Shown one piece after another: positions 57,383 to 60,888 of a stretch of 64,000 nt of DNA. Each line of letters opens with the position of its first letter. Positions within the stretch are counted from its first letter, which is position 1. Where the stretch lies: positions 1 through 64,000 of the forward strand of contig JBBRLI010000012.1 in assembly GCA_038231455.1 (NCBI GenBank), in the 5' to 3' direction. The translations under genes and the position numbers were made by a program. The notes below the pieces were generated by a model. The model did not search any database. It saw only the letters and a program-made list of their open reading frames with translations, and was not told where the DNA came from. This DNA is from Vulcanimicrobiales bacterium (GTDB taxonomy: Bacteria > Vulcanimicrobiota > Vulcanimicrobiia > Vulcanimicrobiales > Vulcanimicrobiaceae).

Positions 57383-58813
57383 ATGGCTAATGAACTGCGC
57401 GATTTTCTCATGCTTTCGTACACCGAGCTCGAAGAGCTCAACCTTGCGGCCAAAGACGACCGTAAGAACCGCGTCCCCGAGGCGAAGATCGCCGAGAAGC
57501 GGATGAAGTATCTCGCGGGAGAGACGCGCATCAAGGCGGTCACCGTGCTCTTCACCGACCTCGAAGGTCGGCTGCACATGCTGGACTACGACAAGAAGTT
57601 CTTGCTCAAGTCCGCCGACAATTTGACGTTCGACGGATCGTCGATCCGTGGATTTACGCCGCAGCGCGAAAGCGATCTGCGCTTGGCGCTCGACTGGAGT
57701 GCGTTCTACTGGGCCCCCGGCGACATTTTCGGCGCCGGGAAAGTTATGGTCTTCGGCGAGGTCCTCGACCGCGACGGCTCGATCTTCCCGGGCGACATCC
57801 GCGGCAAGCTCAAGAAGCTCTCGAAGGACCAGTTCGAGAAAAACGGCTACACGCTCAACGCCGCAAACGAAATCGAAGGCTTCGTTTTCGAAGGCCTCGA
57901 TGCAGAGCGCAACTATCACAAAACGGGCAAATTCGAATATGTGAACACCGGCGGCTACTACCACTCGCTCCCCGGCGACAAACTCCGTCTCTTCATCGAT
58001 ACCGTAGCCGAAGTGCAGCGCGCGATGGGCTTCGAAAACGAAAAAGATCATCCGGAAGTCGCTCCGTCGCAGTTTGAAATCAACTACAGCTACGGCGAAG
58101 TGCTCATGGCCGCCGATCAGATTCAGCTCTACAAGTTGATCTGTCGCCAGGTCGCAACGACACTCGGTCTCTCGGTTAGTTTTCTTCCCAAACCCGTCGT
58201 CGGCGTCAACGGCAGCGGCATGCACACCAACGTCTCGATTTCCAAGAACGGCAAGAATCTGTTTTGGGATCCCAAAGGCGAAGAAAAAGTTAGCGCAATG
58301 GCGTGGGGCTTTATCGATAAAATTCTGACTGCGGGTAACGATATTTGCCTGATGCTCAATGCAAGCGTCAACTCATATCGTCGACTCGATCCGCACTTCG
58401 AAGCGCCGAATCAGATTAAAGCCTCAGCCGTCGATCGGGGCTCGATGATCCGCATTCCGATCGGCAACGAACGTTCTGCGCGCGTCGAGGTTCGCTCGGT
58501 TGCGCCCGATGCCAATCCGTACATGGTTATGCTCGCGGTGTTCCAAACGGGGCTTGAAGGCACCGTGAGCAAGATCAAAAATCTGCGTCAGGCCGAACGG
58601 TATCTGCCGGATAACATCTACACGGCGCTCGATGACTTTCGTGCCTCGGAGTGGACGGCAAAGCTGCTTGGAGCGGATGTTAAAGAACGGTATGCAGAAC
58701 TCAAACAGGCGAGTGCCGATCGGTGCCCGCGACTGCTTGGCACTTTTGTGAAAGCGCAAGAAGTGCAGTATCATCACGAAGTTTACAATCAGTATCTTTG
58801 GAATTTGTTTTAA
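57383..58813 (+). CDS. glnA: Glutamine synthetase (type I-like)
   Basis: FDGSSIRGF, HPEVAPSQFE, FLPKP, NGSGMH, NSYRRL, EVRS.PDANPY. Confidence 0.9.
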   Translation: MANELRDFLMLSYTELEELNLAAKDDRKNRVPEAKIAEKRMKYLAGETRIKAVTVLFTDLEGRLHMLDYDKKFLLKSADNLTFDGSSIRGFTPQRESDLRLALDWSAFYWAPGDIFGAGKVMVFGEVLDRDGSIFPGDIRGKLKKLSKDQFEKNGYTLNAANEIEGFVFEGLDAERNYHKTGKFEYVNTGGYYHSLPGDKLRLFIDTVAEVQRAMGFENEKDHPEVAPSQFEINYSYGEVLMAADQIQLYKLICRQVATTLGLSVSFLPKPVVGVNGSGMHTNVSISKNGKNLFWDPKGEEKVSAMAWGFIDKILTAGNDICLMLNASVNSYRRLDPHFEAPNQIKASAVDRGSMIRIPIGNERSARVEVRSVAPDANPYMVMLAVFQTGLEGTVSKIKNLRQAERYLPDNIYTALDDFRASEWTAKLLGADVKERYAELKQASADRCPRLLGTFVKAQEVQYHHEVYNQYLWNLF

Positions 58814-58870
58814 GATCTGATTGTTCGTGGACTTGGAGGGTAGCGTCTGCTGCTCTCCTTTTTTATTGTG

Positions 58871-59022
58871 GCTGGGCGGGGATTGTATGCGGTTGCGGTG
58901 GGGACGCCCGCTATTTCACATCCATGTGAAATAGCTACTTGCCGACATTTTGCTCCCGCCCATCCTGGGCTCCGCAAAATGCTCGGACACCCCACCGCAA
59001 CCGCATACCATCCCCGCCTCAG
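58871..59022. repeat. Branched palindromic element (REP/MITE-like)
   Basis: 29-bp arms 58875-58903 and 58990-59018 (28/29 complementary) enclosing a perfect 12-bp hairpin (58910-58935) and a second hairpin (58942-58986). Confidence 0.85.
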
Positions 59023-59064
59023 TACGATTTTCTTTGTTCGCTTGGTTGGGTTTTCTATTTTTTT

Positions 59065-60731
59065 CTAGGTGCAGTTGTAGCCGGTTGCCAGTGGCGTTAT
59101 TCCTGAGGGTACGGTTCCGCCGGTTACTGTTGCGTTTATTGTTGGTGATCCGATGTTGGTGGTGACGTCATTATTGCTGTGTTTGCCGGCGTGGTAATGA
59201 TAGTGCCGGCGGGGATGCTCGTGTGCGTTGTTGCGTCGGTGTCGGTGATGGTGAAGCTTAGGGCGTTGCCATTTTTGTCCGAGTAGGGTTCTGCGCCGAC
59301 GATGAGCGCGCCCGATGCGTCTCGTGCTACGAGCTGAACCGTTGTTGTTAGGACGGATGCTCCCGGACATGGGGCGATGATTCCGATTGCAAAGGTTACT
59401 TTGTCGACGACTCCGTTTAGGGCTACTGCTAATTTGTTGACGGCGTTTGGTTGGACTAGAAGCGGGACCGTGTTTGTTTCGAGAATTTTTCCGGTTCCGC
59501 TGGCTCCGCCGATGGCGTTGTAGCCGGTGATCGTGACGTTTGATTGTCCGGCGGCGACGGTTAGCGTTGTCGGTCTGCAGGTTAACGGAAATCCGATACG
59601 GGCGACGTTGCCGGCGCTCTGCTCGCTGAACCAGACGGCTTGATCGGAGCCGAGCGTTGCGTAGATGACGCCGCTGCTAGCCGTCGGCGGGTTGAATGTG
59701 TTGAAGACGCCGCTGGTTGTGGCGCGAATGACCGTGTTGTTGTTGTAATCGGTCATGTAGAGCGCGCCGTCGGCGCCGACGATCATTTTAAAGATGAACG
59801 GAGTTGTGGCAGGGATCGGGTACGAGTTGGTGGTGATGCCCGCGTAGGTCATGCGGTTGAGCATCGTTGCGTCGGCATACCAGATTGCGTTATCGGGGCC
59901 GGCGACGATTGCGTTTCCGTTCTTCGGCACGCTGAATTCGGTTAGAACACCCGCGGTCGTTAATTTCCCGACTTTGCTGTTGTCTTCGGTGAACCAGATC
60001 GCGTTGTCGGTGCCCGTCGTTAGGGCGTAGGTATTGCCGCTCGTTGGATAGGTTCCGATTAGGGCTCCGGTGGCGTCGAGATGGAAAATGTTGGGTCCGG
60101 TATTTGTTGTCGAGGCGGTGAACGCGGAATACCAGAGCGTTTTGTCCGCCGTTGCAGTAAATTGCAGGGCTTGGTTTGCTACCGGAAGGATCGTTTCGGA
60201 AAACGTTGTTGTGATGTCGGTAATCGAACCGGTGTAGAGCCCGCCGACCCACAGGTTGTTGTCGGGGCCGACGATGATGTCTTGTGCGAGGCCGCTCGAA
60301 GTAAGGTTCGGCGTGCGCGCGTAGTTCGTGCCGTCGGTATCGATGTGCGAGATTGCACCGCCGTTGTCTTCGACGATCCAGAGTTTGCCGTCGGGGCCGT
60401 TGATGATGCCGCGCGGTTGGACGTACGACGAGTACAGAGGGTATTCGTTGATTGAGGGCTTGGTGCAATCGGCCGTGCATCCGGGCGTTCCCATGGCGAG
60501 ATTGACGTTGACCGGTGGGGCGGCGCCGACGGTTACGGCGATCGACTTTGTCTGCGGCGAGATGTAGGAGGCGTGTCGTTTTCCCGAATTGCTCGCTCGT
60601 GCCGGAATGGTGATGCTCACGGCAAGCGAACCGGTACCCGCCGGCTGCGGCGTAGCGGGGGCTGTCGTTCGCGTCGCGATAGACGCACCGCCTCCGCTGC
60701 ACCCGACGATGGCGAGAGAGAATCGCGGCAA
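59065..60731 (-). CDS. Vgb (virginiamycin B lyase)-like beta-propeller lipoprotein, probably frameshifted near the 3' end
   Basis: Repeats GPDGKLW, GPDNNLW, GTDNAIWFTE, GPDNAIW, GSDQAVWFSE; lipobox IVGC; listed ORF stops at 59136 while a Thr/Gly-rich tail runs in another frame to 59065. Confidence 0.7.
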
Positions 60732-60888
60732 TGGCGGTTCGACTTTGCACTTCGTAACCCTCAGGGCGGCTGACCAGACGGCGTAGGGCTTGCTCGTCTG
60801 GGGTGGGTGCACCCTCCGGGATCGCATTTCGACCGGGCTAACCGCCTAGAGCATGTGCTAGCTTCCTTATTTTTGGGTAACGGCGGTT

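Follow-up and report, generated by a model that had tools for sequence, protein, structure and literature searches.

We find that a ~165-nt palindromic repeat element, lying between a glnA-type glutamine synthetase gene and an oppositely oriented Vgb_lyase-family gene in a Vulcanimicrobiales bacterium of soil or sediment, very probably anchors a strand-specific mutational scar that reaches into both genes. The element sits in the 64,000-nt stretch analyzed here (assembly GCA_038231455.1, contig JBBRLI010000012.1, positions 1 to 64,000; the window), and it is one of 10 copies that a profile search places in this genome; a covariance model of 116 positions tallies 11 matches, of which 10 are placeable. 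We denote by E the strand that is read 5'-to-3' as the window's + strand, with every copy oriented likewise. The scar is cumulative and strand-specific, its polarity is fixed to the orientation of the element in most copies, and its spectrum is of a damage type. A sequence-only reading of the locus had earlier described a C-to-T footprint centered on the element and ascribed it to repeated exposure of the + strand as single-stranded DNA (ssDNA), through fork stalling, nicking by a HUH/REP-type enzyme or a targeted deaminase; parts of that description stand and parts do not, as described below.

Genes were taken from a crude, unvalidated custom caller based on open reading frames and codon scores (3188 genes, 87.7% coding), and expectations were computed genome-wide for each codon family, T versus C and A versus G at third positions. 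Measured this way, positions 58200-60300 of the window carry + strand T at 139 of 255 sites where 68.3 are expected (z 10.55), an excess beyond genome-wide noise, and A is depleted on the same strand (64 of 316 against 86.3 expected, z -2.95). In successive 300-bp windows from 58100 to 60800 the z-score for T runs 1.9, 2.9, 3.9, 5.7, 8.2, 1.8, 4.3, 2.1, 2.1 and 1.0, to be compared with a genome-wide standard deviation of 1.24 over 22,379 such windows. The footprint sets in at ~58114 inside glnA, peaks at 59100-59550 and ends at ~60600. Over 58650-60650 the mean GC skew is 0.191 and the mean TA skew 0.270; elsewhere in the window the two average 0.072 and 0.122 in absolute value. The Vgb_lyase-family gene on the minus strand, whose sense strand is pushed to A and C, ranks first among the 3188 genes for sense A gained together with T lost.

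The codon counts from which the sequence-only reading started hold up almost entirely. The first 20 glnA codons from 57422 are C-rich (C 11, T 2, G 5, A 2), the last 21 are T-rich with G kept (T 8, C 2, G 7, A 4), and the 40 in-frame codons of the minus-strand gene in 59341-59462 end in A 19 times, in G once and in C 17 times as had been counted, but in T three times, not twice. The bias does fade away from 58.9 kb, but it does so lopsidedly and not about a center. Nor can it be described as C>T alone, since downstream the + strand loses A to G too, and the strand bias extends to C>G and G>T. A contig from an independent assembly of a public run, possibly of the source sample, covers 58768-60350 with four base differences, and because this independently assembled contig gives the same sequence, an assembly artefact is excluded. 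All four differences are C>T or A>G on the + strand, a weak indication at n = 4. The same contig has an extra T at 59164, within the last ten codons of the minus-strand gene, which would alter the C-terminus in part of the population.

Evidence that the scar belongs to the element comes from the other copies. Strand-resolved skew as a function of distance from every copy, a check named beforehand, reveals T gained and A lost on the 3' side of E at 8 of 10 copies, with z-scores for T of 4-9 per 500 bp and a signal that is often present in the last 500 bp 5' as well. Pooled over -400 to +2400, T is found at 1295 of 2727 sites against 769.2 expected (z 23.5) and A at 535 of 2924 against 834.5 (z -12.9). 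In pooled 200-bp bins, T stands at 1.39 times its expectation at -400, at 2.40 times at -200 and at 2.1-3.3 times from 0 to +600, and has returned to ~1.0 by +2600, with A at 0.34-0.68 of its own expectation across the same span. The footprint therefore begins at a sharp edge on the 5' side, ~0.4 kb from the element, and tails off over up to ~2.5 kb on the 3' side, such that it is anchored on the palindromic element, as had been proposed, but not centered on it. Seven of the 10 copies score above every one of 2296 intergenic placements used as a null, and one further copy is exceeded by three of them; conversely, 11 intergenic gaps genome-wide reach an S of at least 8, and 8 of these contain a copy. 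Thirteen of the 15 most strand-asymmetric 300-bp windows in the genome adjoin copies of the element, and the other two adjoin a second family of palindromes.

This second family is unrelated to the first (C7:33789-34192, C7:109300-109700 and C11:4015-4079, with several partial copies elsewhere; contig and position in this genome). One of its members is a near-perfect palindrome of ~400 nt with an RNA fold of -363 kcal/mol, and the neighboring gene ends carry one-sided footprints of the same kind, ~600 bp long, with z-scores up to 6.5.

The genes affected beside the copies are unrelated to one another. By Pfam they encode glycine dehydrogenase (GcvP) subunit 2, an Ogt-domain (O6-methylguanine-methyltransferase) protein, DnaN, a RecF-like protein, GatA, GatB, ThiC, a beta-lactamase-family protein and DnaX, and an all-against-all blastp search detects no paralogy among them; codon usage peculiar to one gene family is rejected as a cause on these grounds. 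They are read in the sense of E at five loci and antisense to it at three, which bears out the earlier claim that the bias follows the strand regardless of the direction of the gene.

Comparison with relatives reveals the direction of change in glnA, whose orthologues are 72-89% identical at the DNA level (20 listed places among relatives). In the congener G001 the gene is 89% identical, and the interval 58813-60849, which holds the element and the minus-strand gene, is absent. From G001 to this genome, codons 360-476 show 26 C>T changes versus 1 T>C, 5 A>G versus 0 G>A, and 9 C>G versus 2 G>C, and codons 240-360 show 15 C>T versus 4 T>C; for codons 240-476 taken together the balance is 41 C>T to 5 T>C, and in the first half of the gene it is 10 to 20 (Fisher p 6e-7). 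Codons 240-476 end in T 60 times in this genome, as compared with 24 times in G001 and 7-26 times in each of five other relatives. Polarizing the substitutions in these codons with outgroups, also a check named beforehand, assigns 25 C>T and 3 G>A changes as derived in this genome and 3 C>T and 2 G>A as derived in G001, which places the origin of the footprint in glnA within this lineage. For the Vgb_lyase-family gene, a search of 30 relatives found no close orthologue by which to polarize changes; the gene is one of a large paralogous family, and its best relative among the 30 genomes is 38% identical. More broadly, the region downstream of glnA has been remodeled since the split from G001, which lacks not only the element and the Vgb_lyase-family gene but also 60967-61671, most of an alpha/beta-hydrolase-like gene at 60889-61695.

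The mutation spectrum was read at the gatA/gatB island, from synonymous third positions with a conserved amino acid, relative to the consensus of four outgroup genomes (Table 1). In addition to the changes at ancestral C and G listed there, ancestral A has become G at 7 of 12 sites in the island. Every pair of complementary changes is asymmetric, with p below 1e-7. The lesions that correspond to these changes are deaminated C and A, oxidized G, and abasic or oxidized C. On this assignment, which draws on established knowledge of the lesions, all favored classes of change are lesions of bases on E, which points to damage on an exposed strand, and the spectrum fits an exposed or unrepaired strand better than simple G:T misincorporation. 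The earlier proposal that the + strand is repeatedly single-stranded gains from this, in that the spectrum is what damage to an unpaired strand would leave; the single-strandedness of E itself is what we infer. The targeted deaminase finds no such backing, as the changes show no preference for a particular 5' neighbor, in a test that is confounded by codon constraints.

Table 1. Fate of ancestral C and G on strand E at the gatA/gatB island and in distal controls
Change on E	Island (-500 to +2500)	Distal controls
C to T	141 (51%)	24%
C to G	53 (19%)	9%
C to A	5 (2%)	5%
G to T	43 (19%)	6%
G to A	23 (10%)	13%
G to C	9 (4%)	15%

The features of the window locus are collected in Table 2. The palindromic body of the element folds about equally well on either strand as DNA, at -61.3 kcal/mol for the + strand (z -13.3) and -63.5 kcal/mol for the - strand (z -12.8). 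Across the aligned copies, compensatory double changes occur in 35 of 54 pairs, a number matched by none of 500 shuffles, and 95.9% of 484 alignment cells are paired, as compared with 41-47% in slid controls. Wobble is scarce whichever strand is considered (6 G-U cells and 7 C-A cells in a manual tally). That both strands fold equally well and wobble is rare points to a structure maintained in DNA, and so to a structured DNA element as opposed to an RNA. A search of Rfam returns sub-threshold matches only, to plant and animal miRNA hairpins and to TwoAYGGAY.

Several further features of the copies are worth recording. In three of them (C11:35975, C4:164508 and C10:77155) inner hairpin 2 carries the same additional hairpin of 32 nt, inserted at its apex. 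The outer stem of the old copies here has a G+T-rich 5' arm and a C+A-rich 3' arm on either strand (58866-58903 and 58990-59032 in the window). The sequences of the outer arms vary among these copies yet remain complementary, and in the relative G005 they are nearly identical in all copies.

Table 2. Features of the glnA locus in the window
Feature	Position	Strand	Basis or remark
glnA-type glutamine synthetase gene	57383..58813	+	Pfam Gln-synt_C 244 bits, Gln-synt_N 41.9 bits
5'-side part of the footprint, in the 3' half of glnA	58114..58813	+	C lost, mostly to T; cumulative excess rises from 58114
Intrinsic terminator of glnA: 10-pair stem and T tract	58835..58866	+	Terminator scan, RNA fold
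Full repeat element with conserved termini	58866..59032	.	Nine-copy alignment; nhmmer match 58868-59015; remnant termini in G001; ends approximate, within ~10 nt
Palindromic body, 144 nt, three-way junction	58875..59018	.	29-nt outer arms (97% complementary) around two hairpins
Inner hairpin 1, 12-pair stem	58910..58935	.	Repeat search; helix 2, double changes in 8 of 11 pairs
Inner hairpin 2, stem core	58946..58981	.	Repeat search and copy alignment
3'-side, main part of the footprint	59019..60620	+	T and G gained; 300-bp z for T up to 8.2, z for A negative
Non-coding G+T-rich spacer	59033..59135	+	A 9, C 19, G 32, T 43; ends at the stop codon of the minus-strand gene
Vgb_lyase-family (beta-propeller) gene	59136..60827 (start uncertain, 60827 or 60620)	-	Pfam PF24684, 139.9 bits

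The element at the window locus is an old copy of a non-coding, structured repeat that resembles a miniature inverted-repeat transposable element (MITE): it is multi-copy, has no coding capacity and has conserved termini, and its insertions are polymorphic between relatives, being missing at the glnA locus of G001 and reduced to a remnant with both termini at the gatAB locus of that genome. Matches occur in 22 of 31 related genomes, at 0 to 54 per genome; within the same family 15 of 18 genomes have them, as do 5 of 5 from a second family and 1 of 7 from a third. The 54 belong to G005, in which the 35 copies analyzed are near-identical, outer stems included, and no recurrent neighbor gene is found at these 35.

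Other genomes give footprints of differing reach. At 6 of 7 evaluable copies in G001 the footprint runs in the same direction as here, with the one mirror case at the dnaA-dnaN orthologue. In G017, which belongs to another genus, it is shorter, from -250 to about +1000 over 10 copies, and the 35 young copies of G005 show nothing past +200, where even the signal that is seen may be conserved sequence of the element. No footprint is detected at 6 copies found by nhmmer among 20 loci of another family of the order (genus g19), for which the baseline is poor. Footprint length thus differs between genomes and seems to grow with the age of the copies. The scar outlasts the element: at the gatAB locus of G001 the palindrome has been deleted internally, such that only the two termini are left, and the footprint is kept at z-scores of 5-7. 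Elsewhere in this genome, C5:135601-138783 holds a strongly skewed gene that has no element beside it (other genes are present), and G001 keeps a copy at the corresponding place.

How might such a scar come about? Damage on E beside old copies would accumulate and become fixed over evolutionary time, with E losing C to T and G, G to T, and A to G, until genes are recoded toward G+T over kilobases. In the mechanism we favor, the element, folded in DNA as a hairpin or three-way junction, would interrupt synthesis of the complement of E; the nascent strand 3' of the element would be degraded or filled late, a short gap would be left on the 5' side, and the exposed E would be deaminated and oxidized before it is copied. 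We regard the scar joined to this trigger of stalled synthesis as a plausible reading that falls somewhat short of an even chance; E may also have to be the template of the lagging strand.

A number of observations weigh against this account. The evidence is read from fixed differences and bears only indirectly on ssDNA, on stalling and on ongoing mutation. The main footprint lies 3' of the element, but if synthesis were simply blocked, the gap ahead would open 5' on the template strand, and so degradation of the nascent strand must be assumed; moreover, both strands fold alike, which leaves the one-sidedness unexplained. Two of the 10 copies deviate, one at dnaA-dnaN with a mirror-image footprint and one at C10:101968 with none. 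Six copies are orthologous between this genome and G001, so that the counts from the two genomes are not independent. The shorter reach in G017 (~1 kb), and the lack of a long footprint in G005 and at the six copies in another family, are explained by copy age by assumption only, and gene calls and expectations alike rest on the crude custom caller. As for the copy at dnaA-dnaN (C4:199776-199920), its footprint falls on the other side and the other strand, over dnaN and recF, and is found in the same form at the G001 orthologue; the affected strand is also the G+T-rich one in the background of the contig, and a link to the replication origin is possible.

Other processes could expose or damage the same strand. 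One that we think unlikely, while taking it seriously, is that an untranslated transcript made from or through the element along E forms R-loops, with the displaced E being damaged or the template strand being repaired preferentially; the tail would then be set by where transcripts stop, and loss of C with gain of G could weaken Rho sites, stabilize hybrids and so lengthen the footprint with age. A G+T-rich non-template strand is a known sign of transcription-associated asymmetry, and the geometry fits, with E damaged from about the element 3'-ward in a decaying tail whose length varies by genome and seems to rise with copy age. The upstream gene points toward the element at 5 of 8 loci; at the other 3 of 8, however, both neighbors are antisense to E, a consensus scan finds no promoter-like site inside the element, and the structure shows no preference for G-U on either strand. 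Transcription of this kind would also have to account for an onset ~0.4 kb 5' of the element, for the finding that no other gene in the genome is so biased, all top windows adjoining repeats, and for the presence of an RNase H-family gene. We consider it improbable that an element-specific enzyme, such as a HUH nickase, a relaxase or a transposase, nicks E, with displacement, transfer or uptake then exposing the strand 5'-to-3'. Displacement from a nick would explain the polarity and the sharp edge, the element is evidently mobile (the 54 matches and near-identical copies of G005, and the difference in presence between congeners), and in the three copies with the 32-nt insert this falls exactly after the apex heptamer of hairpin 2, a heptamer that we take to resemble the nick region of an IncP-type oriT or a T-DNA border. 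That heptamer varies among copies, however, the neighborhoods of the 35 copies in G005 offer no recurrent gene, and a search of five genomes (this one, G001, G003, G005 and G017) reveals no candidate enzyme of the HUH/REP type named in the sequence-only reading: Y1 transposase (PF01797) is found in 0 of 5, as compared with 6 of 14 control genomes, reverse transcriptase (PF00078) only as a fragment in G003, and relaxase (PF03432) only in G005, the relative with the most copies, where these are without a long footprint. The searched genomes are 91-97% complete and plasmids may be missing, so this does not prove that an enzyme is absent. The second, unrelated family of palindromes, with its similar short footprints, favors a structure-driven host process over a nicking enzyme. 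The Relaxase domain of G005 lies in a 1340-amino-acid open frame at G005:C1:2962647-2965979; for the element, an oriT or relaxase nick site gains no support, as the search detects no relaxase in the present, nearly complete assembly.

Replication direction could instead pick the strand, if hairpins form on the lagging-strand template and the match with element orientation comes from orientation-biased insertion or retention, a reading to which we give slightly less weight than to a nick. Raw skew is a weak and noisy guide to direction, hence the use of a background GC skew at 4-fold sites corrected for gene orientation. With the mirror copy and the C5 locus without an element counted among the 10 footprints, 7 of the 10 have a positive skew of this kind on the affected strand, and the six copies common with G001 are all among the seven; the length of the tail is also near the usual size of an Okazaki fragment. 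Seven of 10 is not significant, however, and as the orientation of the element predicts 8 of 10, replication direction does no better. Strong footprints are moreover found where the background skew is negative, at the window copy (-0.042, standard error 0.009) and at C10:77155 (-0.025, standard error 0.008). The fork stalling of the sequence-only reading may accordingly still apply, although replication direction, so far as it can be inferred, gives the right strand for no more than 7 of the 10 footprints. That there is no mutational scar at all, and that the pattern stems from codons favored by one gene family, from foreign DNA with an unusual composition, from selection acting on RNA, or from artefacts of assembly or damaged reads, seems to us very improbable. 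The minus-strand gene, missing in the congener and part of a large paralogous family, could on its own have been imported, but the pattern extends to unrelated core genes in both orientations and is graded by distance, the bias in glnA is derived relative to six relatives, and the independent assembly agrees. Foreign DNA is rejected for the core genes and glnA, as the glnA changes are polarized as derived in this lineage. Three further candidates fail. Resection of double-strand breaks with damaged 3' tails would mark the opposite strand 3' of the element and give mirror symmetry, a pattern not seen at 8 of 10 copies; a diversity-generating or other retroelement would need a reverse transcriptase, which the search does not find in this genome, and the changes (C>T, C>G, G>T and A>G) are not adenine-specific; and missing repair is not the cause, with UDG, MutS and RNase H families present in 4 of 4 genomes searched.

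Among published phenomena the closest kind is the GRINS skew regions. In the paper that describes them, functional genes carry GC and TA skews that are intense, agree in sign and are most pronounced at third positions, and the mechanism is stated to be unknown; GRINS are there defined as duplicated regions of >80% identity, linked to gene conversion, with single-copy regions of intense skew also mentioned (PMC8256042). As far as that description goes, the islands found here resemble GRINS in being kilobase-scale, in having same-sign skews in functional genes and in pushing amino-acid usage to residues coded by G/T or C/A; they differ in being single-copy and in unrelated housekeeping genes, and in having a repeat as anchor, one polarity, decay with distance and an origin dated to a lineage. 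In 150-nt windows at a step of 30, positions 58650-60650 give absolute skews of 0.217 (GC) and 0.273 (TA), beyond the threshold of >0.15 over >500 bp that is applied to GRINS. Duplication is what is lacking, as a blastn search of 58814-60830 against the genome matches only the repeat element elsewhere, over 110-130 nt. Both skews are positive throughout the island, with a window-wise correlation of r 0.13 (62 windows) as compared with 0.19 in the rest of the window. A literature search that covered the GRINS paper apart from its supplements found no paper linking such skews to a palindromic repeat.

The footprint also recalls asymmetries of larger scale. In replication strand skew and in the gradient of vertebrate mitochondrial DNA, G+T accumulates on the strand that is single-stranded for longer, through C>T and A>G changes that follow exposure time; the scar differs in being local (~3 kb), many times stronger than the genome's own skew (~0.02-0.04 at 4-fold sites), and tied to a repeat and not to an origin. 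Transcription-associated asymmetry at the 5' ends of mammalian genes likewise makes the non-template strand G+T-rich, setting in abruptly and fading over 1-2 kb, whereas the footprint ignores the direction of the genes it covers. The element itself is like MITEs and REP/REPIN sequences in being short, non-coding, hairpin-forming, multi-copy and intergenic and in varying in presence between congeners, and unlike REP/REPIN in having no cognate RAYT/Y1 transposase (PF01797, 0 of 5 genomes); in the literature searched, a flanking halo of mutation is not described as a property of either group. TwoAYGGAY RNA (RF01731) is described as a pair of hairpins carried by a long basal stem, present in many copies and resembling a mobile element (10.64898/2026.09.22.753630). 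The element is similar in all these respects and gives a weak match on the - strand; membership in this family is rejected, since the gathering score is 43 and the matches reach 23.6 bits (E 0.39) and 18.3 bits.

What the finding would mean for these bacteria is that a small mobile repeat predicts which strand is rewritten, in which genes and over what distance, where local mutation rate in bacteria is usually ascribed to replication and expression. We put forward tentatively, and with slightly less conviction than the stalled-synthesis account, that structured palindromic repeats can act in cis as directional local mutators, recoding kilobases of one strand and leaving a scar that outlives the repeat. 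The effect makes one gene the most codon-deviant in the genome and alters silent sites in dnaN, gatAB, thiC and glnA, and the skew islands so produced mimic horizontally acquired DNA in composition-based scans. The footprints represent a natural spectrum of ssDNA damage (C>T, C>G, G>T and A>G), and they offer a testable origin for regions of intense skew that are so far unexplained, GRINS among them, which, if this is true, would have a nucleating element and a polarity.

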